Assembly (NCBI GenBank): GCA_964613055.1
Contig: CAZTGD010000001.1
Coordinates: 6,977 to 70,976, forward strand
Reading direction: 5' to 3'
Source of the DNA: an uncultured Caldisericales bacterium
GTDB taxonomy: Bacteria; Caldisericota; Caldisericia; JAAYUI01
DNA: 64,000 nt
Below the pieces are notes generated by a model. It was not told where the DNA came from. It made no database searches and saw only the letters and a program-made list of their open reading frames with translations. The position numbers and the translations under genes are program-made. Of this stretch, positions 14,939 to 35,715 are shown one piece after another (the stretch's first letter is position 1; each line of letters opens with the position of its first letter).

Positions 14939-15025
14939 GCCGAAGTGGCGGAATTGGTAGACGCGCATGGTTCAGGTCCATGTCCAGGCAACTGGGTGGG
15001 GGTTCAAGTCCCTTCTTCGGCACCA
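14939..15025 (+). tRNA. tRNA-Leu (anticodon CAG), long variable arm, encoded CCA
   Basis: Manual fold. Acceptor GCCGAAG/CTTCGGC. Anticodon stem CATGG/CCATG with loop TTCAGGT. Variable stem CCAG/CTGG. 3' terminal ACCA. Confidence 0.85.
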
Positions 15026-15067
15026 CTGTTTCTTAGAACCCATACAAATATCAGCTGTATTGATAAT

Positions 15068-17257
15068 ATGAGGTTATCATCTCTTGTTCTTGTTGTGACC
15101 GCTATTGTGACTACGTCTGTCGTGTCTTCATCATTAATTGCTGTTGACGATTACAGAAAAGCTCCCGCTCCACCTTTTTCTTTGACATCAAAAGTGGATA
15201 TTGAAGCTGGATATCTTTCAAAATATCCACCAGTCTCGTTTAGGGATGGGTATATTTTTGGTGACTCCAAAGGGAGACTGCAGTACATAGTTGGTGACAG
15301 TTGCTGGATGAGTGTCTCTGTTGATGGTTCAGATATCAAGTCAGCACCAATTCTGGATGGGGATATCGTATTAGTTGGTACAATGGCAGGTACGTTGGCA
15401 AGTATTCATATGCCATCTGGAGAGTTGCGATGGGCGTTCAAAGCGAAGAATGCAATTATTGGAAGACCTCTTGTAGCAGAGGATAATGTTTATTTTGGCA
15501 GTGCTGATGAGAGATTCTATTGCCTCAACTTAGAAGATGGTTCAAAAGTATTTGAATATCAAACCAATGCTCCGATATGGAGTACTCCTTGTGTTGTGGG
15601 TGATAGTGTGATTTTTGGGTGTGATGATGATTCAGTTTATTGTATCAACAGGTTTGATGGAGAGCTAATTTGGGTGTTCAAGTGCGATGGCTGGGTGGAG
15701 GCAGAACCTGTAGTTGATGATATTTTTATATACATAGGTACTTTGGGTGGGAGTGTGTATAAAATAGATATCTTAACAGGTGAATTGGAATGGAAAATAC
15801 AACTTAATGATGCAGTTCATTCAAAGGGTGTGCAGATAGATAACAGGTATTTTACCGCTGATGACTCGGGATCGATAACATGTTTGGATACTTTCAACGG
15901 AGAAATTATCTGGCAGAGAACAGACTACTCCGCAATTGATACGCCTTTAGAGACAAATGGGGAGTTGATCTATTTTACCGACGAAAACAAGAGGTTTGTT
16001 TGTTTGGATGTGTTTGGTGATCAACTCTGGAGAAGGAATATGATTCATGCGGTTCGGAGTGGTGTTTTGGTGGATGAGTACACTCTTGTTATGGTGAGTT
16101 CAGATGGATTTCTTGAATGTTGGGATGAATGTGGTTATGTAGAGGTTACACCAAAGAACCGTTATCTGGGAGAGGTTGCTGAGGAGGATGGTTTTTTTTC
16201 ATTCAGGATGGATATTGTATCAGGTAGAAAGGATGATCGAGCTTCCCAGGGGATGATCGATTATAGACCTTTTGAAGCGGGGAAAAGGTGCAAAGCAGTT
16301 CAATTCAAGGAGTTGGGAATATCCTATATCAAGAATTTGCGGGTATTCAGCTATGAAGGAAACATAGATCTTTCAGATCCGTCCTTCTGTGATGGATCGA
16401 ACGATTTCGTTGTATATTTTGGTATCGGTCAACCGTTAAGCGAGGGTGATGGGATTTACCAGTCTCCCAGCTCAGATGGAATGGTTCACACTCGGTTTAC
16501 CTTTGATTTGGTTAGTGACAGGTCAGATTGTCAGACATGCGAGCCATGTTATAAAGTCAGCATAACGCCCAATAATACACCCTATTTCAAACGAAATGAG
16601 TCTGGGAGTTTTGAGATACAAGTTTCGTCTGCAGACGATATCAACAGGGAGATAGAGATTAATATAGAGGGCATAAAGGGAATCGAAAGTGAGGAACTCA
16701 AACTGATGCAGGAAGATGGTTTAGTGTCTCACCAAATTGAGTTCGATTGCATGGATCTGCCTGGAGGTTCGTATTTTCAGATACCGATCAGTATATCGTG
16801 TGTGACCTGCCCCAGACCAAATGAGAAAATGAGGTCTGATTGGCATTCAAACAGAACGATCAGTTTCACAACAGACCCCAGGCTGAGGATAGATATGAAA
16901 CCTGATTCGGTGGATGTGTTGGTCAACGGTAATCCAGTAAGACTCGATGTGCCAGCCAGGATAGTTGATGGCAGAACTCTTGTGCCTATAAGATTTGTAG
17001 CCGAAACGTTTGGTTGTGATGTATCTTGGGAGCAGGAAACAAAGAAGGTAACTATAATTAAAGATGAAACTGTTCTCAATTACTGGGCGTATCAAAAGAG
17101 AGCCAGATTCAATGGACTTGATGTGGAAATCGATGTTGGTCCCATAATCGAAAGGGGACGAACACTCGTTCCCTTTCGCTCAGTTGCCGAATCACTTGGA
17201 GCTTATGTACGGTGGATAGCTACATCAAGAGATATAATAATTGATTGGGAGTTTTAG
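15068..17257 (+). CDS. Secreted PQQ-like beta-propeller repeat protein with two C-terminal copper-amine-oxidase-N-like (stalk) domains
   Basis: The table ORF (14945) starts inside the tRNA. ATG 15068 gives signal peptide MRLSSLVLVVTAIVTTSVVSS. Repeated propeller motifs (DG..W, YF.TADDSG). C-terminal RTLVPIRFVAETFGCDVSWE and RTLVPFRSVAESLGAYVRW. Confidence 0.7.
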   Translation: MRLSSLVLVVTAIVTTSVVSSSLIAVDDYRKAPAPPFSLTSKVDIEAGYLSKYPPVSFRDGYIFGDSKGRLQYIVGDSCWMSVSVDGSDIKSAPILDGDIVLVGTMAGTLASIHMPSGELRWAFKAKNAIIGRPLVAEDNVYFGSADERFYCLNLEDGSKVFEYQTNAPIWSTPCVVGDSVIFGCDDDSVYCINRFDGELIWVFKCDGWVEAEPVVDDIFIYIGTLGGSVYKIDILTGELEWKIQLNDAVHSKGVQIDNRYFTADDSGSITCLDTFNGEIIWQRTDYSAIDTPLETNGELIYFTDENKRFVCLDVFGDQLWRRNMIHAVRSGVLVDEYTLVMVSSDGFLECWDECGYVEVTPKNRYLGEVAEEDGFFSFRMDIVSGRKDDRASQGMIDYRPFEAGKRCKAVQFKELGISYIKNLRVFSYEGNIDLSDPSFCDGSNDFVVYFGIGQPLSEGDGIYQSPSSDGMVHTRFTFDLVSDRSDCQTCEPCYKVSITPNNTPYFKRNESGSFEIQVSSADDINREIEINIEGIKGIESEELKLMQEDGLVSHQIEFDCMDLPGGSYFQIPISISCVTCPRPNEKMRSDWHSNRTISFTTDPRLRIDMKPDSVDVLVNGNPVRLDVPARIVDGRTLVPIRFVAETFGCDVSWEQETKKVTIIKDETVLNYWAYQKRARFNGLDVEIDVGPIIERGRTLVPFRSVAESLGAYVRWIATSRDIIIDWEF

Positions 17258-20104: not shown

Positions 20105-21577
20105 ATGGATGACGCTATGAACGAAGAGAGAGATCATACCAAAGGGAATATCCTGAAGAACCTGATAAGCCTTGCCTGGCCAGGTATTGCGGGAAGATTC
20201 TTTGAGAATCTTCATGGGATAGTTGATCTTATCTGGATCGGTATGCTTGGTGGGGCAATGGCTACACAAGCTCAAGCCGCGCTTGTTATATTTGGTGTGG
20301 TCTTTGCTTTCGTGTTTATATTCAACAACCTTTTCGGTCTAAGCTCCGTGTCGATCATTTCAAGGTATTGGGGAGAGAAAAACTACAAAAAAGCTGAGTG
20401 GGCGGCAGAACAAACCATACTGTTCAAGTTTGTTTTTGGTGTGGCAGGTGCAATACTGACATTGATCCTCCTGGAAACCTTCCTTTCTTTTGCTGGAGCT
20501 AGTGCGGAACTGTCGACAGAGTCGGGTTATTCGGTAGTCGGTATTGCCCTTGTATACGGTAGAATAATCCTCATCGCAACACCGTTCTGGTTCACCTACT
20601 TCACATTCAACACAATTTTCAGATGTACATCTGATGCCGAAACGGGAATGTTTCTGACCATTATGTCGGTCATAATAAACGTAGTGTTAGATCCACTGAT
20701 GATCCTTGGGATAGGAGTTTTTCCCAAAATGGGGATTGCAGGTGCCGCGTGGGCAACTGTTATTGCGCAGATGTGTTCGTTTATTCTTGGACTGATACTT
20801 TTATCAACAGGCTATAAGTTCCGATTTGTCCAAACGCGTTTTTCAATTGGAAAGATCATTTTACCAAAATTGATTCTTTTAAAGAGAGGAATAAAAATAA
20901 GCTTGCAAGGTCTGTTAAAACCAGATATTTCAATGATGCTTAACATGATGAGAATTGGTACTACCCCGGCATTGTCAAACCTTTTCAACACTGGATCGGG
21001 TATGATATTTATGAATATTGTGAGCAGTTATAATAACGATGCCCTCCTCTCAGCGTTTGGAATTGGTATGAGGCTCATCGGTTTAGTTAATATGCCACTC
21101 CTTGGTCTTCAGCAGGCGGCGGGTTCGCTTGTTGGTCAGAATCTGGGAGCTAATTCCCCTTACAGGGCTGAAAAAACAGTATGGTATTCTGTTTTGATAG
21201 CACTCAGTTTGTCTGGTTCAATGGTTGCAATATCATACCTTTTTGGAGGGCACATCTACTCTGTGTTCAATCGAGAAGCTGAAGTCATTGCCTTTGGTTC
21301 TTCTCTGCTTGGATTGGCTATGCTACAAAATACAACCTTTTCCATAAAATTCATGATAACATCGTCATTTGAAGGTTCAGGTTACACATTGTGGCCAATG
21401 ATATTTGACACATTAGCAACCTGGCTTGTGTTGTTACCGATCCTTTATTTTACAATCGTGGTCTTTAAATTCGGATACGAGTGGATTTTCATATCAGGTA
21501 TAATTGCCAACAGTGTGCAACTCTTTGTGAGTCTTATGCTTATGAGAATGGGAAGATGGAAGACCGCAAGGATTTGA
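20105..21577 (+). CDS. MATE family efflux transporter
   Basis: 12 TM segments. N-terminal ILKNLISLAWPGIAGRFFENLHGIVDLIWIG is typical of MatE domains. Confidence 0.8.
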   Translation: MDDAMNEERDHTKGNILKNLISLAWPGIAGRFFENLHGIVDLIWIGMLGGAMATQAQAALVIFGVVFAFVFIFNNLFGLSSVSIISRYWGEKNYKKAEWAAEQTILFKFVFGVAGAILTLILLETFLSFAGASAELSTESGYSVVGIALVYGRIILIATPFWFTYFTFNTIFRCTSDAETGMFLTIMSVIINVVLDPLMILGIGVFPKMGIAGAAWATVIAQMCSFILGLILLSTGYKFRFVQTRFSIGKIILPKLILLKRGIKISLQGLLKPDISMMLNMMRIGTTPALSNLFNTGSGMIFMNIVSSYNNDALLSAFGIGMRLIGLVNMPLLGLQQAAGSLVGQNLGANSPYRAEKTVWYSVLIALSLSGSMVAISYLFGGHIYSVFNREAEVIAFGSSLLGLAMLQNTTFSIKFMITSSFEGSGYTLWPMIFDTLATWLVLLPILYFTIVVFKFGYEWIFISGIIANSVQLFVSLMLMRMGRWKTARI

Positions 21578-21668
21578 GAGTGCACACAATCAATCTGAGG
21601 CAATTTCTATTCATTGTTTTCTCCTTTTGTCAAAACACCCAAGCTAAGAACCATCATTATCCAGATAA

Positions 21669-22256
21669 TCATTCTCTGTATATACTAATTAATAGCTTTC
21701 CAATTCTAGTTAGTGGTTGTCCGTATTTTCCACTTGCTATTATTCCTGAACCAAGCAATCTAGACATCATTGGGTCATTCAAATAATAATTCATATCATC
21801 ATTATTAATTATGAATTGGGCATTTGTCATTTTGTCTATTTTGACAATATCTTCATAAAAACATCTGTCTATTGCATACCCTACTTCAAAAAACTGATGT
21901 TCAGTAATCCTACCCATAATCAGATATTTAAAAGCTTTGCCAAGTAAGACTGCTTTTTCAACACAATCTAATCTATCAATTAATATCATCATTTTCTCAC
22001 AAATTTCTACTGATTTCCCACTATCCAACTTTTTAATATACAATTCTCGATCTTTTTGGGGAATTGTATCTGGATTACCCATGAATCCAATCCATTTCTT
22101 AAAAAATGCTCGTCTTAAACATTTTTCTACAAGTTCATAACCACTTGAAGCAATTGAACCAAGATAAGGGATCGCTGTCAATACTGTTTTTATACATTCT
22201 TTGACTATACAACTATCAGTTATTGGATTGTTCAGTCTATTATCAGATTCCTTCAT
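21669..22256 (-). CDS. Hypothetical 195-aa protein in the AT-rich island, co-oriented and 15 nt downstream of the Type IIG R-M gene
   Basis: Very AT-rich ORF with no recognisable motif. Lies immediately 3' of the R-M gene on the same strand, so co-transcription is likely. Confidence 0.5.
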   Translation of the reverse strand: MKESDNRLNNPITDSCIVKECIKTVLTAIPYLGSIASSGYELVEKCLRRAFFKKWIGFMGNPDTIPQKDRELYIKKLDSGKSVEICEKMMILIDRLDCVEKAVLLGKAFKYLIMGRITEHQFFEVGYAIDRCFYEDIVKIDKMTNAQFIINNDDMNYYLNDPMMSRLLGSGIIASGKYGQPLTRIGKLLISIYRE

Positions 22257-22271
22257 CTAAGCTCCTTATCC

Positions 22272-25200
22272 TTATTTATAAGGCAGTTTTGAAAGTTCAT
22301 TGACAAGCTTCACCGTTTCTAGTGAGACGGTTACCACCTTGCCAATGAGGTCAAATATATACCTTTCATTGCCGTCAAAGTTGTTTGGGTCTTGTTTTAT
22401 TCCTGACCTTTTATCTGTTTTGACCCTGTATTGGTCAACAATCCATTCTAAAGCAGAGCGGTTACCCAGCTTGTATTCATAGACTTCTGGTGGGATGCCT
22501 GCAAGTGTTATTGCTTTGTTGTAGACAAGTGATTTCTTATCCTTTGTAATTTTCATCTTGTCTACGGTGAACTTTACATCTGGGAATCTATCTTTATCAA
22601 TAACCTCTTCAAGCTCATATATGTCGGCGTTTTCATAGTCCAGGTGAATATCAGCGAGTCTTTTGCCAATCGAACTGAAGCTCCAGAAGTCTGGTGCAAA
22701 GGGTATTCTTGGTAATGATCCTTTCAGGTTCTTCTCATAGTCCTTGCGGTAATCCTTGTGGTGTAGCATTGCATAGATGTAGTAGAAGATGTCCCATTTG
22801 GTTATTTGCTCCGCTTCACAGGGAGGGTGGACAGGAGTATCATTTAAACCCCCCTGATTTGACTTCGTCAAATCTTCCCCCCTCGAAGAGGGGGGCTTAT
22901 TGTGTGCTTCGTCGGTTCCACTCGAAGAGGGGGGCTTAGTGTCTTTGTAGTGGTTGTGGAACAGTTTCAGGGTGTGGTCGGTAATGTTTTCACGTCTTCC
23001 TGTGCCGTCCTTGTTGTAGGTGTAGAAGGGGAAGCATTGTGAATCACCTGTAAAATGTAAATCAGGTATGGTCTTCGATATTAATGACTGGAATGGTTTC
23101 TTGTTTCCAACCGCTGTTGTGCATATCACCCTGTTCTCTTCCTCGGATGCGGATGTTGGAAAGAAACGATGTTGTTGGTATCTTCTTTGATTCAATAGAT
23201 GATCAAAATATAGATTCACTCGACAATAAGGTCTATAAATACTTTTTCTAAAACCGTTCTCTGATAACCTAATTTGAATATTTTTCTTGAGAGATTCTTT
23301 TAGTCTAACCGTCCACTTTATCTTGCTCTCATCATTTGATAAAATCTTTTCTAATTCAATATCACCAATTTGTCTGTGTGGTTGCTTCTCTAATTTTATT
23401 CTTTCAGTTTCATATGTTGAATAATGCAACATAAGATTTGTTTTTAATTCTTGTTGTGAGAAATTGTATACCCATATATCTCTACCTGTTGCAACTCCTC
23501 TTGAGTAAAGATTGAAGATGGTATCGCAGTCCGGTTTGCCCTTCTTGCGCTTGTCACCCATCAGGGGGTAATCCTCAAAGTCCTCCGCCATACCCTCAGT
23601 CAACCACAGGTGACGCTTGCTGGGTGTCAGTTTCTTCCAGTTGACTCCTTTTAAATCACCCGCCTTGTATACAATTTCAAACTTTTCAATCCTTGTAGAT
23701 CTGAAAGGTACGTCAAAGTACCAGATTCCCTTTTCTTTTGATGCTTTGTTCTTTATGAAGAATGAAATGGATATACCAACCATTGCTGACAGACCAAACA
23801 CTGTATGCTTTTCACCCAATGGTATACCATCTCTCATTGAGTCTTTCCGTATGTTACCCTTTAGATCCAACACATACAGCTTATCAAAATCCTTCTCCAG
23901 GTGCTTTCTCATCCCGTCAAAAGCGTATCCATCGATGAAGCTGTTGTTGGTGATCATGGCAATAACACCCTCATCACCGATTCTCTCTGATGCCCACTTG
24001 ATGGCTTTTACATATGGATCATAAATTGCATTCTTTTTTGTCGCTCTTGAGTCTTTCCCAAAGGTATTTCCGATAGCCTCCTCTAATTTGGGATATTTCC
24101 TGTTTTTATTATTATCCATCTCATTCTGCTGATTTGAGTTGTATGGAGGGTTACAAATGACAACAAAGATTGGTGATTCTGACTGTTTTATGACTCTCTG
24201 TGCGTTCTCATCATTGAAGTACAGACCACCGTGTTCTTCAAACATCTGAAAGGTGTCGGCAAAGCAGATGCCTGGGAAGGGCTCTCTTTCACCCATAGCA
24301 TCGTAGTATGCGTGCTCTATGTTGATGTTTGCTATGTAGTATGGCATCAGCTGTATCTCATTACAGTGAAGCTCCTCAAGGTATTTTTGTTTTAGTCTGG
24401 TAGGGTTAATCTTCTCTATCACGTTTACTATGAAGTTTCCTGTTCCCACAAAAGGATCAATAATGTGGACTTGTTCACTACCTAGACCCTGCTTCTTGTC
24501 AAACTCTGTCTTGAGTATCTCGTCTACTGACCTGACCATGAAGTTAACCACAGGTTGTGGTGTGTAGACTATTCCAAGTCTGTCTGCTGATTTTATTGCC
24601 CAGCCTTGAAAGAAACGCTCAAAGATATCGTTTAGGAAGACCTGTTTTGCTTTGAAATCCTCCAGCTTATATGCCGCTTTCACTATCTGATCGTAGAAAT
24701 GGTCAAGAGAGCCTAAGAACTCTGTTTTGTTGAAGTAACCTTTGGTCATTGAATCGATTACGCTTTCAATGTTCTTTGCTATTATGTTTCGACTTGTAAA
24801 GCTCTTAAGGTCAAATATGCTCTCCAGTATCCTCTCCGTAAGCAGGTGCTGTACAATCATCTCTTTGATTGCGACACGGCTCACATTGGGATTGATTGAT
24901 TTTGTGCAAAGTTTATAGAACTCATCAAATCTTTTTATGAAAAGCTCGTTTGTTTGTTGTGATTCCTCAATCTTTTCAAGCAGACCCTTGGCGAGTATTG
25001 GCATACGTTCATCAAAGGTGTCAATAGCCTCTTCCCATGTTTTCCTGTCAAAATGTTCATAGTTGAAGAACTTTTCAAGTACCTTGATGAAACTCTCTGG
25101 GTTGTCTGCTATATCTTCATCATAGACCTTTTTCTTTCGCTGTATTAGAACAGCACGCTTTGGTTGCCAGAAGAGTATATTGAAATCTGGATAGTCTTTT

Positions 25201-25559
25201 GTGAGAATCTTTTTTTCTATCTCTTCATCCAGGTCATCATCGTCATCCTTTGATTCCATATACCCCATGGGGAGAATGCCTACTTTTGATTCTAGAAAAC
25301 TGCCATCAGGGATGTTGCCGTTTGGTAGAGATTTCTTCGGTTCAAAGTTCCATTCAACTTGCTTTGAACAGTATGAAAGTAGGTTTAGGAAGATTGGCTC
25401 TACTACACCTTCAGATGGATTGTTGTTTGTACGAGTCTGAAAATATATCTCATACTGCCTCTTCATATCCCTGTAGTACTGCTCAATGGGTTTGTCAGAA
25501 GGTTTTAGGCTGAGTTTGCTCTGTTCATTCATACAACCACTCCCATTTATAGTTTTCAA
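22272..25559 (-). CDS. Type IIG (MmeI-like) restriction-modification enzyme: N-terminal PD-ExK-like nuclease + gamma-class N6-adenine DNA methyltransferase + target-recognition/C-terminal domain (alternative: BREX PglX-like MTase)
   Basis: Candidate nuclease motif IPDGSF...VGILPMGYMESK (PD...ExK), resembling the D..ExK catalytic motif recalled from MmeI (not verifiable here). MTase motif I IIDPFVGTGNFIVNV. Motif IV VVICNPPYNS. C-terminal FYYIYAMLHHKDYRKDYEKNLKGSLPRIPF matches the MmeI/PglX-type C-domain. No BREX partner genes nearby. Confidence 0.65.
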   Translation of the reverse strand: MKTINGSGCMNEQSKLSLKPSDKPIEQYYRDMKRQYEIYFQTRTNNNPSEGVVEPIFLNLLSYCSKQVEWNFEPKKSLPNGNIPDGSFLESKVGILPMGYMESKDDDDDLDEEIEKKILTKDYPDFNILFWQPKRAVLIQRKKKVYDEDIADNPESFIKVLEKFFNYEHFDRKTWEEAIDTFDERMPILAKGLLEKIEESQQTNELFIKRFDEFYKLCTKSINPNVSRVAIKEMIVQHLLTERILESIFDLKSFTSRNIIAKNIESVIDSMTKGYFNKTEFLGSLDHFYDQIVKAAYKLEDFKAKQVFLNDIFERFFQGWAIKSADRLGIVYTPQPVVNFMVRSVDEILKTEFDKKQGLGSEQVHIIDPFVGTGNFIVNVIEKINPTRLKQKYLEELHCNEIQLMPYYIANINIEHAYYDAMGEREPFPGICFADTFQMFEEHGGLYFNDENAQRVIKQSESPIFVVICNPPYNSNQQNEMDNNKNRKYPKLEEAIGNTFGKDSRATKKNAIYDPYVKAIKWASERIGDEGVIAMITNNSFIDGYAFDGMRKHLEKDFDKLYVLDLKGNIRKDSMRDGIPLGEKHTVFGLSAMVGISISFFIKNKASKEKGIWYFDVPFRSTRIEKFEIVYKAGDLKGVNWKKLTPSKRHLWLTEGMAEDFEDYPLMGDKRKKGKPDCDTIFNLYSRGVATGRDIWVYNFSQQELKTNLMLHYSTYETERIKLEKQPHRQIGDIELEKILSNDESKIKWTVRLKESLKKNIQIRLSENGFRKSIYRPYCRVNLYFDHLLNQRRYQQHRFFPTSASEEENRVICTTAVGNKKPFQSLISKTIPDLHFTGDSQCFPFYTYNKDGTGRRENITDHTLKLFHNHYKDTKPPSSSGTDEAHNKPPSSRGEDLTKSNQGGLNDTPVHPPCEAEQITKWDIFYYIYAMLHHKDYRKDYEKNLKGSLPRIPFAPDFWSFSSIGKRLADIHLDYENADIYELEEVIDKDRFPDVKFTVDKMKITKDKKSLVYNKAITLAGIPPEVYEYKLGNRSALEWIVDQYRVKTDKRSGIKQDPNNFDGNERYIFDLIGKVVTVSLETVKLVNELSKLPYK
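22842..22934. repeat. GC-rich structured in-frame insertion inside the R-M gene: 17-bp direct repeat (CTCGAAGAGGGGGGCTT x2), four C6/G6 homopolymer tracts, nested hairpins
   Basis: CCCCCC-TGATTTGAC-TTC-GTCAAATC-TTCCCCCC-TCGAAGA-GGGGGG ... TCGAAGA-GGGGGG. Much higher GC than the surrounding roughly 30% GC gene. Encodes the Pro/Ser/Gly linker KPPSSSGTDEAHNKPPSSRGEDLTKSNQGG. Confidence 0.5.
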
Positions 25560-25629
25560 ACCTGTTATCCATTACAACTGCCCATTATATAGCCACAAAT
25601 AATACCAATCAAATCTCTACTCTTTCATC

Positions 25630-25647
25630 GTATACCAAAGGGTATAC
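25630..25647. promoter_or_regulatory. Operator-like palindrome GTATACC-AAAG-GGTATAC in the R-M gene promoter region
   Basis: 7-bp inverted arms, 70 nt upstream of the R-M start codon (25559). Shares arms with the second palindrome 56 bp away. Confidence 0.35.
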
Positions 25648-25685
25648 ACAATATAACAGTTTGTAATACATTCCTTTTATATTAT

Positions 25686-25703
25686 GTATACCCATGGGTA
25701 TAC
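25686..25703. promoter_or_regulatory. Perfect 18-bp palindrome GTATACCCATGGGTATAC between the wHTH gene stop and the R-M gene start
   Basis: Perfect dyad with the same GTATACC arms as 25630-25647. A candidate dimeric regulator binding site. Confidence 0.35.
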
Positions 25704-25732
25704 TGTAATAGGGATGATGAATTACATAGTTA

Positions 25733-26257
25733 CTATCTGTGATTGATGATATTAGAGATGTCATAGGTGTTTGCTATTCCCGTTCTTCCTTTTCTGCTGT
25801 GTATACCCTTTGTGATTATTAGATTGTATTCACTTTCAAGTGACTTAATTGCTTTGTTGGGTCCTGCTTTTGAATAGGTTCCTCTGGTACTGGGTTGAAG
25901 GTTCATGAATTCACAGATCTGTTCAAGACTTAGGAAACAGCTTGTATTGTTGAATTGATGGCAGACTGAAAGGATGATACGAAGGATCTTGTGTTTGTAC
26001 TTATCACCTTTGATATTAAAGTATGAGGTGTTTATCTTTGGTCTGTGACATATTGATTGGATGCTGTTGTAAACATTGGTTAGGTATTGGTATCTGTAGT
26101 TAGAAAGCTCTGAAAAGTGACCAGGCTGATACTTGTCAAATACGTCTTTTATATCATCCAGTGAGTAACCACAGGTATCAAGACGGGTCATAACCGCGGC
26201 TTCTGCCTCTGATCTTGATGGATATGATTTGAAGGTGCTTAGAGTCTTTATATCCAA
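25733..26257 (-). CDS. Winged-HTH protein, possibly a truncated or non-canonically initiated replication-initiator/regulator-like gene of the island
   Basis: C-terminal wHTH-like segment LSLEQICEFMNLQPSTRGTYSKAGPNKAIKSLESEYNLI. The table ORF starts with TTG. The same frame stays open upstream to a TAG at about 26629-26631 (roughly 125 more codons, including a CSGCG motif) with no ATG, GTG or TTG in between. Confidence 0.4.
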   Translation of the reverse strand: MDIKTLSTFKSYPSRSEAEAAVMTRLDTCGYSLDDIKDVFDKYQPGHFSELSNYRYQYLTNVYNSIQSICHRPKINTSYFNIKGDKYKHKILRIILSVCHQFNNTSCFLSLEQICEFMNLQPSTRGTYSKAGPNKAIKSLESEYNLIITKGIHSRKGRTGIANTYDISNIINHR

Positions 26258-26658
26258 AGGGATTCCTTTTATAGCTGTTTTCAGGTTTTCAAGTGCTGTG
26301 TATACCCAAGGCTCTGGTTTGAGTTTTAAATACCGAGGGAGTACAAGTGATGTGTTTGATGATGTTGAAGTGCTGGGATTAACAAGGTCAGATATGTCTG
26401 ACCAATTTATCTCAGGTGGATTTATAAACCCGTTGTACCAGTCGTTGTTCCAGTAATATTCAAAGCTTCCAACTTCTGAGTTTGGTACAAGAGAATAGCA
26501 GTTTCTGATACGTGCCTCTCCCTTACCAACATCTGGTCTCCAATTGGTTACGGTTATGTCAGCGGGTTTTGTTAAGTTGTCAAGTCCACAGCCGGAACAT
26601 TGCGGCTCATCCTCGATGAGTTGAAATCTCTAGCATTCGTATTATCATCTAGCACTAA

Positions 26659-34068: not shown

Positions 34069-34145
<77 letters not shown>

Positions 34146-34152
34146 TTGGTGT

Positions 34153-34226
34153 GTGCCCGTAGCTCAGTTGGATAGAGCATCTGCCTTCTAAGCAGAGGGT
34201 CGGGCGTTCGAGTCGCCCCGGGCACG
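34153..34226 (+). tRNA. tRNA-Arg (anticodon TCT)
   Basis: Acceptor GTGCCCG/CGGGCAC. Anticodon stem TCTGC/GCAGA with loop CTTCTAA. T-loop TTCGAGT. No encoded CCA. Confidence 0.8.
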
Positions 34227-34245
34227 TATATCATTGGCATGGTAT

Positions 34246-34320
34246 GGGCCCATAGCTCAGATGGATAGAGCGGCGGTCTCCTAAACCGCAGGTCGCAGGT
34301 TCGACTCCTGCTGGGCTCAC
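34246..34320 (+). tRNA. tRNA-Arg (anticodon CCT)
   Basis: Acceptor GGGCCCA/TGGGCTC. Anticodon stem GCGGT/ACCGC with loop CTCCTAA. T-loop TTCGACT. Confidence 0.8.
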
Positions 34321-34335
34321 CATCGAAAAGAGGGA

Positions 34336-34410
34336 GCGCCTATAGCTCAACTGGATAGAGCGACGGACTTCGGATCCGTAGGTTGCGGGTTCGACTCCTG
34401 CTGGGCGCGC
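34336..34410 (+). tRNA. tRNA-Arg (anticodon TCG)
   Basis: Acceptor GCGCCTA/TGGGCGC. Anticodon stem ACGGA/TCCGT with loop CTTCGGA. T-loop TTCGACT. Confidence 0.75.
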
Positions 34411-34428
34411 CATTTGTATAGTTGATGT

Positions 34429-34504
34429 GGGTTGCTAGCTCAATTGGTAGAGCATCTGACTCTTAATCAGGCGGTTGGGGGTTCGAGTCCCTTGCAACCC
34501 ACCA
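34429..34504 (+). tRNA. tRNA-Lys (anticodon CTT), encoded CCA
   Basis: Acceptor GGGTTGC/GCAACCC. Anticodon stem TCTGA/TCAGG with loop CTCTTAA. 3' terminal ACCA. Confidence 0.8.
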
Positions 34505-34519
34505 CCTAAGCGGTAAGAA

Positions 34520-35491
34520 ATGGTTGATATTAGATACATACACTGGAAAAAGAGCATTCGTCGGTTGATGGATTTTGGAAGACGAGAGATCCTTCGCGGC
34601 AAGAACGAAAAGATTATAGTCGACAGGCTTCAAGATGAAATTCGAGATCCCCTAAAAACAGCAGATGTAATTGTTATAGCAATAAAAGGTGCATCAATGG
34701 TTGGATATTGCACTGGCATATTGTTGGACGAGGGAATAACAATAACTTCTCTCATTGTTTCGCCTACAGTTGATCGACTTAAGGTTACACCTCAACTCGT
34801 ATTTTCTGTAATCAACCAACTCTCCAGAAAGGGCAAGTTCAAGTTTATCCAGATGGAAGTGCCCTGCATTAATTCTGATTATATTTCAGCTAGCATGAGA
34901 CAGTTTGGGTTTATGATATTCTCTCAGCTTGAGATGTTTATCACTCATTATAATCCAAAACCAGAAAAGCATATTCCAGGTGTCTCTCTTGATAATTGGA
35001 GAATAGATACCGAGAATGAAGCCTCACTCGTTATCGCCATATCAGACCTTGGCGAAGAGGAGATGAGAAAGGATATTCAAGAACGAGAACCCAGGCAAAG
35101 GTGGTTGGAGGAATGCAAGCTTCTTTCTGGAGGCGAACTAGACAAAAATCTTTGCCATCAAGCCTTCATTGGCAACGAAATGGTTGGAATGATAGTCGGT
35201 TTGATTAGAGACAGGAAGATGGGTAGAATAGAGGGAGTTGGTGTTATTTCGGCAAGGAACAGAGAGCGAATAGAGAAGGTCTTAGTAGAACGTTCACTGG
35301 TTGGATTTGCTGAACATGGCATCAAACTTGTCAGAACCATTATCCCGATGACCAAGAAGAAAACTATAGATACACTGAAAACTATAGATTTTACTTCAAA
35401 TATCTATTGCCCCGATCTTCTTCTGCTTTCCTCAGACCAGAGCTGGGATGCTGTCTGCAAGGAAGCTCTCAGTGTTAACCTTGAAAGTTAA
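34520..35491 (+). CDS. Hypothetical protein, possible tandem GNAT-fold acetyltransferase
   Basis: Two halves each have a GNAT-like core (VIAIKGASMVGYCTGILL...RKGKFKFIQMEV and MVGMIVGLIRDRKMGRIEGVGVISARNRERIEKVLVERSL). Weak evidence. Confidence 0.4.
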   Translation: MVDIRYIHWKKSIRRLMDFGRREILRGKNEKIIVDRLQDEIRDPLKTADVIVIAIKGASMVGYCTGILLDEGITITSLIVSPTVDRLKVTPQLVFSVINQLSRKGKFKFIQMEVPCINSDYISASMRQFGFMIFSQLEMFITHYNPKPEKHIPGVSLDNWRIDTENEASLVIAISDLGEEEMRKDIQEREPRQRWLEECKLLSGGELDKNLCHQAFIGNEMVGMIVGLIRDRKMGRIEGVGVISARNRERIEKVLVERSLVGFAEHGIKLVRTIIPMTKKKTIDTLKTIDFTSNIYCPDLLLLSSDQSWDAVCKEALSVNLES

Positions 35492-35536
35492 CGCCTCATC
35501 CTTATACTCACTTGGAGCAGTTTGAAAAATGAGTGT

Positions 35537-35622
35537 GCGAGGGTGGCGGAATTGGTAGACGCGTTGGATTTAGGATCCAGTGAGCTTAGCTCGTGCGGGT
35601 TCAAGTCCCGCCCTTCGTACCA
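35537..35622 (+). tRNA. tRNA-Leu (anticodon TAG), long variable arm, encoded CCA
   Basis: Acceptor GCGAGGG/CCTTCGT (two G-U pairs). Anticodon stem TTGGA/TCCAG with loop TTTAGGA. Variable stem GAGC/GCTC. 3' terminal ACCA. Confidence 0.8.
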
Positions 35623-35640
35623 ACACTATAACTTGTTGAT

Positions 35641-35715
35641 GCGGGAGTAGCTCAGTGGTAGAGCACGACCTTGCCATGGTCGGGGTCGCGGGTTCGAATC
35701 CCGTCTCCCGCTCCA
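35641..35715 (+). tRNA. tRNA-Gly (anticodon GCC), encoded CCA
   Basis: GCGGGAGTAGCTCAGTGGTAGAGCACGACCTTGCCATGGTCG... Anticodon loop TTGCCAT. 3' terminal TCCA. Confidence 0.85.

Follow-up and report, generated by a model that had tools for sequence, protein, structure and literature searches.

The stretch of DNA analysed here, hereafter the window, comprises 64,000 nucleotides (nt) of an uncultured Caldisericales bacterium (contig CAZTGD010000001.1 of assembly GCA_964613055.1, positions 6,977 to 70,976), and the subject of this report is ORF195, an open reading frame (ORF) that lies directly behind the gene of a single-chain restriction-modification (R-M) enzyme. An earlier note on this DNA, made from the letters and the ORF list, had suggested that a gene in such a position is often a defence accessory. 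One part of this suggestion stands: ORF195 appears to share an operon with the R-M gene and lies in the same inserted island, and members of its family often occur beside defence and mobile-element genes. The other part, the role as an accessory of the R-M enzyme, is not supported, as the comparative evidence speaks against it. With a probability of roughly 55%, ORF195 is an autonomous passenger module rather than a subunit of the R-M enzyme or a factor for its specificity, because its family has no recurrent partner, no member elsewhere has a Type IIL or Type ISP-like neighbour, homologues of the R-M enzyme do without it, the two genes are discordant in codon composition, the family gene is AT-rich in nearly all loci and a solitary copy exists in another Caldisericia genome.

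The earlier note described a same-strand frame that starts 15 nt past the R-M stop and is extremely AT-rich, and this description was borne out. On the minus strand the sequence reads ...AAA-TAA-GGATAAGGAGCTTAG-ATG, the TAA stop of the R-M gene lying exactly 15 nt ahead of the ATG of ORF195, and the spacer is identical in a variant strain of 98.6% DNA identity. The GC content of ORF195 is 30.6% (21.4% at third codon positions, GC3) in comparison to 40.2% (GC3 44.5%) for the R-M gene and 42.0% for the whole window. A consensus scan of the minus strand found no terminator-like site between the two genes, and the sole promoter-like match near ORF195 is weak (9/12) and lies about 315 nt inside the R-M gene; no convincing terminator structure was seen 3' of ORF195 (z +0.87). 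Since the gap is only 15 nt, ORF195 has its own Shine-Dalgarno site and neither a terminator nor a convincing promoter lies between the genes, the co-transcription that the earlier note considered likely is also the simplest reading of the gene spacing. ORF195 is a real gene, because it has 590 homologous representatives, a confident alignment-based AlphaFold2 model and an ideally spaced Shine-Dalgarno site, and because it is retained in a second strain. The first two of these observations rule out that it is a spurious ORF.

ORF195 had no match in Pfam, NCBIfam, PADLOC, PHROGs or the sequences of the PDB (nothing at E<=1 in PADLOC, a sole PHROG match at E 0.095), and a word-indexed protein search returned only ORF195 itself, on microbial-mat metagenome contigs of one organism, or eight proteins when the family alignment was used. 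An exhaustive HMMER search (phmmer) of cluster representatives, the clusters being defined at 50% identity, revealed a family: 590 representatives reach E<=1e-3, 11 of them E<=1e-10, and nearly all are 200-240 aa long. The family spans Caldisericia, Firmicutes, Bacteroidota, Cyanobacteria, Proteobacteria, Gemmatimonadota and enterobacterial phage-plasmids. In an alignment of 61 sequences the motifs IPxxG, FxKKxxxFL and L(L/I)DRLDxxEK(A/P)xxxGKxF are conserved, and the only columns with at least 90% conservation are P30, K54, F58, L59, K101, F109 and G171. The alignment contains no conserved constellation of acidic or histidine residues and no conserved catalytic residues are visible in the family, which argues against an enzyme role and for a non-enzymatic character of these proteins. 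ORF195 itself is among the shortest and most divergent members, with 20-31% identity to the other 60 aligned sequences. Scans of the 61 members gave no convincing match and no helix-turn-helix (HTH) model in Pfam, and in PADLOC only scattered single matches to unrelated models at E values of at least 1.5e-4. Kinship with Abi_alpha (PF14337) was ruled out by the absence of a Pfam match and by an hhalign probability of 0.5% against the Abi_alpha protein encoded at one of the family loci (L006; loci are cited by our own numbers).

About 40 independent loci of the family were collected by direct look-ups, by scans of genomes and metagenomes with degenerate DNA patterns that target the LDRLDDxEK(P/A) motif, and by tblastn against plasmids. 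The first motif pattern yielded 14 true members in species-representative genomes, approximately 71 of its 85 genome loci and all 7 of its viral-contig loci being chance hits; with the extended pattern 20 of the 21 metagenome loci were true members, and none was found in viral contigs. An all-versus-all BLAST comparison of 117 flanking proteins from about 35 loci found no recurring partner family, except at near-identical loci of close relatives. Co-occurrence with MmeI-like genes, which the earlier note had proposed as a check, turned out negative: a phmmer search with the R-M protein of the window found no Type IIL or Type ISP-like neighbour in about 40 family loci outside the organism's own contigs. 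A same-strand neighbour lies within 50 nt in 13 of 35 family loci and such neighbours are functionally unrelated to one another. Therefore, tight packing is typical of the family as such and cannot be taken as a sign of partnership.

The same question can be put from the side of the enzyme. Behind its two closest helicase-less homologues on plasmids there is either a Fic gene or no same-strand gene. On plasmid pGM04 of Geminocystis sp. NIES-3708 (L104, 947-5510) the gene of another helicase-less Type ISP-like/Type IIL enzyme (35% identity over 97% of the query) has a Fic-family gene 110 nt downstream of it, that is, a different gene in the equivalent 3' position. DrdV belongs to the Type IIL enzymes and is a single chain that comprises nuclease, connector, methyltransferase and target recognition domains, and the paper describing it mentions no partner protein (doi 10.1101/2021.01.06.425610). 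The DrdV-like plasmid homologues examined here have no ORF195 counterpart beside them. MmeI, likewise, is not known to need a partner protein. A shared history of ORF195 and the R-M gene is not supported by their composition, given above, or by their divergence between strains, which is 0.17% for ORF195 versus 3.2% for the 3' end of the R-M gene, where a Pro/Ser-rich repeat differs in length.

The neighbours of family members are heterogeneous and rich in defence and mobile-element genes, an integrase, a DDE transposase and Rep3 being among them. Defence-type neighbours include Dodola DolA and DolB (L043), DUF6414 and DUF4365 proteins (L111), DUF2971 proteins (L114 and L116), Schlafen/AlbA_2 (L114), DUF4145 (L035), HerA (L041), Mrr_cat (L103) and pP_pnuc_1 together with Abi_alpha (L006). 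The PADLOC models that matched among 90 neighbour proteins are PDC-S03 (2 proteins), DolA, DolB, PDC-S31, PDC-M37B, HerA, ZorD/Mrr, Csa3, PDC-S02 and PD-Lambda-2_B. The earlier note would have given up its proposal had homologues occurred only in contexts unrelated to R-M or defence; this is not the distribution found, because many homologues sit in defence contexts. In Clostridium thermopalmarium DSM 5974 (L043, 1626-4305) a family member lies 123 nt upstream, on the same strand, of a Dodola-like pair of a DUF6414 protein and an AAA ATPase, and a 77%-identical copy of it in Desulfosporosinus adjoins a HerA-like ATPase instead. Dodola as described consists of a DUF6414 protein and a ClpB-like protein (doi 10.1101/2024.10.26.620412).

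The composition of the family gene points to mobility. In 31 of 33 loci it is richer in AT than the remainder of the locus (median difference -7.6 GC points, Wilcoxon p 1.6e-8), and the deficit reaches -25 and -28 points in high-GC hosts. According to tblastn 89 plasmid records carry the family, mostly non-mobilizable IncFIB replicons of about 110 kb from Klebsiella, Enterobacter and Citrobacter. These replicons have dnaE, recombinase and exonuclease genes, and we take them to be SSU5-like phage-plasmids; homologues on those of Klebsiella are, for example, WP_191260176 and WP_113991594. In these replicons the family gene is always found in one hotspot next to dnaE (L129, L131, L133), whose alternative cargo is a 'DNA-binding protein' gene plus the family gene, or IS1, the family gene and an FRG-domain gene. 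Solitary chromosomal copies occur as well: the more distant of two related Caldisericia genomes (its MATE transporter is 66% identical to that of the window) has one member (P0006, 196 aa), about 1.1 Mb away, between acetyltransferase and thioesterase genes. In three cyanobacterial metagenome-assembled genomes a shortened, same-strand member of 156-177 aa precedes the RNase III gene (rnc) by 15-31 nt, and these copies are 11-18 GC points under their surroundings (L062, 3608-4823; L084, 6065-7344; L095, 524-1756).

The profile searches and the fold comparison proposed in the earlier note gave, besides the family itself, a confident model. Modelled as a single sequence with AlphaFold, ORF195 reached a pLDDT of 43; AlphaFold2 on the family alignment gave a pLDDT of 82.7 and a pTM of 0.74, the model being all-alpha with one C-terminal beta-hairpin. 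DSSP assigns three helices, the beta-hairpin and a further helix to residues 134-194. Foldseek found nothing in the PDB at E<0.001 with this model, and its non-significant list consists mostly of winged-helix proteins (HucR, MexR, OhrR and other MarR proteins, ArsR, the RuvB C-terminal domain, MotA and S19e); the one match in BFVD is an unnamed viral protein of 221 aa (E 1.3e-4, TM-score 0.64). The top match of a profile of the C-terminal half (about 95 aa) among PDB sequences is the HxlR-type protein YybR of B. subtilis (4A5N). It is weak (E 0.004, 20.8 bits) and consists of two collinear segments, helices 1-2 and the 'GL-wing-Y.LT..G..L' region. The order of secondary structure elements would fit HxlR/MarR proteins and the weak Foldseek hits are mainly MarR/ArsR; in contrast to these proteins, ORF195 has an insertion of about 20 residues after the putative recognition helix and an N-terminal domain of about 95 aa without counterpart, and its family has neither a Pfam HTH match nor an upstream operator signature common to its members. 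The whole-length family profile gave only E 0.25 for a winged-helix match among PDB sequences, and hhalign comparisons of the family with single PadR and ArsR sequences were not significant. Matches of an N-terminal profile to the PDB were spurious (summation over Protein A repeats; an influenza M2 helix at E~0.6), and a transmembrane reading of this region was rejected because its hydrophobic run is only about 12 residues long and broken by charged residues.

With moderate confidence we predict from these comparisons that ORF195 and its relatives have two domains. The N-terminal one would be helical and novel and would contain the conserved motifs IPxxG, FxKKxxxFL and LDRLDxxEK, and the C-terminal one would be a divergent winged helix similar to those of HxlR/MarR proteins. 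The statement of the earlier note that no HTH is present was probably wrong, given the weak match to YybR. The family is new as a family, since neither the four profile libraries nor the PDB sequences contain it and Foldseek gives no significant match in the PDB. Its kind is familiar, as that of a small, mobile defence-island module which consists of a single gene and has a winged-helix-like domain.

Our best guess for the function is a nucleic-acid-binding, stand-alone defence or modulator protein. ORF195 would form the final cistron of the R-M operon and be expressed from there. The family is promiscuous in its horizontal spread: its members are single AT-rich genes of variable regions, such as defence islands, plasmids and phage-plasmid hotspots, and sometimes stand among housekeeping genes, and they are often packed tightly behind or ahead of unrelated same-strand genes. 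The protein may bind nucleic acid through its winged helix, would probably form an oligomer through the N-terminal domain and may act alone. Its likeliest role would be that of a stand-alone sensor of an immunity or abortive-infection type, and less likely that of a modulator of the adjoining cargo; a stand-alone immune or abortive-infection function is put forward here tentatively, the odds being clearly below even. Similarly speculative is the broader proposal that the family constitutes a new single-gene anti-phage or abortive-infection module, in which a winged helix attached to the N-terminal helical domain would sense foreign nucleic acid, and the gene would travel as an AT-rich, largely promoterless cassette that uses operons of the host for its expression.

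Known systems offer partial parallels. BrxR/CapW-type regulators accompany many unrelated defence systems, and the ORF195 family resembles them in being small, in its predicted winged helix and in standing beside diverse unrelated defence systems with no single partner. Unlike these regulators, it has no WYL domain, its position relative to the neighbours is variable (upstream, downstream or solitary), and many copies have no defence neighbour at all. It also resembles the PDC-S candidates of PADLOC and Abi proteins, as a solitary, AT-rich, mobile gene without enzymatic motifs that occurs in variable regions near defence genes; it differs from them in that no PADLOC model detects the family and that no similarity to the Abi_alpha protein is seen.

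Several observations weigh against the reading of ORF195 as an autonomous module of this kind. The contexts of several loci are plainly housekeeping (L005, L017 and L139, and the RNase III gene in three cyanobacteria), family members being found, for example, between CMD and TlyA genes in a genome of 66% GC and after an alcohol dehydrogenase gene in Ferrovibrio. The defence association of the family is a raw tally of neighbours without a background rate, and the family is absent from PADLOC. The winged-helix call is weak, as the E value of 0.004 was obtained against PDB sequences only, Foldseek gave nothing below 0.001 and no Pfam HTH model matched in 61 members. Co-transcription is read from gene spacing only. 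Upstream palindromes are not in excess in the family as a whole (1 of 43 loci at p<0.05). Finally, the common island, the common operon and the operator-like palindromes upstream fit a local functional link to the R-M enzyme.

This last point leads to the alternative that survives best, namely that ORF195 serves the Type IIL enzyme of this island as a dedicated accessory, for instance as a negative feedback regulator that acts on the GTATACC-N4-GGTATAC palindromes or as a protein modulator that tempers self-restriction. Directly upstream of the operon's promoter-like site there are two perfect 18-bp palindromes (Table 1), a type of site to which winged-helix dimers bind. The pattern has two perfect matches in the window versus a chance expectation of 0.12 even when up to 2 mismatches are allowed, and the palindromes look like operators of a dimeric DNA-binding protein, the putative binder being ORF174, the first gene of the island, or ORF195 with its winged-helix-like C-terminal domain. 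Moreover, a single-chain enzyme can presumably not be timed by separate transcription of restriction and modification genes, so a control of its dosage might be useful. However, ORF174 is at least an equally good candidate and is favoured over ORF195 as the binder, because a copy of the 14-nt repeat GGGTATACACAGCA lies in its own upstream region. Matches of ORF174 to HTH_36 and Phage_rep_O in Pfam are below the cut-off (E 0.06-0.12) and no homologues of it were found in plasmids or in the PDB. The lack of an upstream palindrome excess at family genes elsewhere argues against a classical autoregulated repressor. ORF195 does not resemble the controller (C) proteins of R-M systems either, which are Xre HTH proteins of about 80-100 aa, are encoded upstream of or overlapping the restriction gene and have C-box operators in their own promoter: it is 195 aa long, lies downstream of a fused R-M gene and has no HTH_3/Xre match, although operator-like palindromes do occur upstream of the R-M operon of the window. 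As no other family member adjoins a Type IIL/ISP gene, R-M homologues lack an ORF195 counterpart and the codon composition of the two genes is discordant, we consider a dedicated accessory unlikely.

Even less probable is that the family serves mobile elements as an anti-defence or establishment factor and that its chromosomal copies are remnants of integrated elements. The 89 plasmid records, including the replicons that we take to be SSU5-like phage-plasmids, would agree with it, and so would the integrase, transposase and Rep3 neighbours, the one viral protein of BFVD that shares the fold, and plasmid pRvVAR0630e of Agrobacterium vitis, where the family gene lies between the traA relaxase gene and mobilisation and type IV coupling protein (T4CP) genes. 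However, tblastn with two divergent queries gave no match in 50,697 phage genomes and neither motif pattern found a true member in IMG/VR; solitary chromosomal copies stand among core genes with no other mobile-element genes nearby, and an anti-restriction gene that is co-transcribed with the R-M enzyme of the host would be hard to rationalise. The weakest alternative, a decaying or functionless passenger whose position 3' of the R-M gene is accidental, would be in line with the strongly deviant composition of ORF195, with its place among the shortest and most divergent members and with a single between-strain substitution that is non-synonymous (selection on ORF195 is not measurable because the strains differ in this one substitution only), yet it is very improbable in view of the intact full-length frame with all family motifs and a strong Shine-Dalgarno site, of the confident AlphaFold2 model of the ORF195 sequence itself, and of the intact gene in all six other contigs of the organism.

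If the family is immune or immune-modulating, it would be a very widespread single-gene module that has been missed by Pfam, NCBIfam, PADLOC and PHROGs. Its presence on clinically relevant phage-plasmids of Klebsiella and Enterobacter, the former especially, makes it a reasonable candidate for experimental defence screening. Should ORF195 prove an ordinary passenger, the locus would simply be a Type IIL island of the DrdV kind that carries an unrelated gene along. The case also calls for caution with guilt by association: an R-M gene that is only 15 nt away and shares the operon need not be a functional partner, because the family habitually inserts tightly against unrelated genes.

Table 1. 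Features of the island around ORF195 (positions in the window)
Feature	Position	Strand	Description	Basis
Island of about 5 kb (ORF174, R-M gene, ORF195)	21578-26610		between MATE transporter gene and PQQ-repeat gene; three same-strand genes	
ORF195	21669-22256	minus	ATG start, 195 aa; member of an unannotated family (~200-240 aa, helical)	ORF listing
Intergenic spacer, 15 nt	22257-22271	minus	Shine-Dalgarno AAGGAG 5 nt upstream of the ORF195 ATG; no terminator-like site	sequence reading
Single-chain DrdV-like Type IIL R-M enzyme	22272-25532	minus	1086 aa from ATG 25532; alternative start TTG 25559 gives 1095 aa	
Putative promoter/operator region of the R-M/ORF195 operon	25584-25703	minus	promoter-like TTGATT-17-TATAAT and two palindromes; function deduced	
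Perfect 18-bp palindromes GTATACC-N4-GGTATAC	25630-25647, 25686-25703		56 bp apart, just upstream of the promoter-like site	
ORF174, first island gene	25733-26257	minus	also a gene in the Joint Genome Institute (JGI) record; possible DNA-binding regulator	ORF listing
14-nt exact repeat GGGTATACACAGCA	25795-25808, 26294-26307	minus	one copy in ORF174 at its 3' end, the other upstream of the gene	

Homologues of the MATE protein mark the organism as a relative of Caldisericia. In the two related Caldisericia genomes (MATE proteins 84% and 66% identical to that of the window) the MATE gene is directly followed by the PQQ-repeat gene, the synteny being otherwise identical, and nucleotide homology with the closer relative ends at 21577 and restarts at about 26610-26647. 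Therefore, the window contains an insertion of about 5 kb. No convincing end repeats, att sites or flanking direct repeats were found at the island, and no integrase was found there. Among the six other contigs of this organism (L001-L004, L106 and L107) that carry ORF195, four encode the identical protein and two a protein with one substitution; the strain with 98.6% DNA identity keeps the R-M/ORF195 pair, ORF195 having one non-synonymous change, A128V.

The label of the earlier note for the neighbouring enzyme, Type IIG and MmeI-like, was essentially right and can be refined to Type IIL, DrdV-like and without a helicase. Among PDB entries the enzyme best matches DrdV (7LO5, 1029 aa; E 7e-175, alignment from residue 67), with which it shares the domain order and the conserved N-terminal nuclease motif PDG...GY(W/M)ESKD. 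A PD-ExK nuclease at the N-terminus is followed by an ISP coupler, an N6-adenine methyltransferase and a Type ISP-like target recognition domain, without a helicase; the Pfam domains are ISP_coupler, N6_Mtase and Type_ISP_C. The match to the PADLOC model REase_MTase_IIG (E 3.7e-230) is confined to profile positions 719-1639, which means that the enzyme is without the nuclease-helicase half of true Type ISP enzymes, and LlaGI and LlaBIII align with it only from the coupler onwards. The form that starts at the ATG is the version in public collections.

In contrast to DrdV and MmeI, the enzyme of the window has, inserted in its target recognition domain, a Pro/Ser-rich repeat that varies between strains. 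This tandem repeat (KPPSSxGxD), together with a GC-rich, hairpin-forming DNA repeat, lies in the Type_ISP_C region at about 22830-22945; its length and sequence vary between strains and metagenome contigs break around it (about 22794-23365).

Elsewhere in the window, a PQQ/beta-propeller gene with a Cu_amine_oxidN1 domain (15070-17257) shows 3.9% divergence between strains, as compared with about 0.1% in the adjoining genes, and may be a hypervariable surface-protein gene or a recombination tract. The long ORF that starts with GTG (14945-17257) overlaps a separate tRNA-Leu gene (14939-15025) at its 5' end and the JGI record has a gene of 729 aa in the same frame; its true start is therefore probably located downstream. 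Positions 34069-35715 hold seven clustered tRNA genes (Pro, Arg x3, Lys, Leu and Gly).

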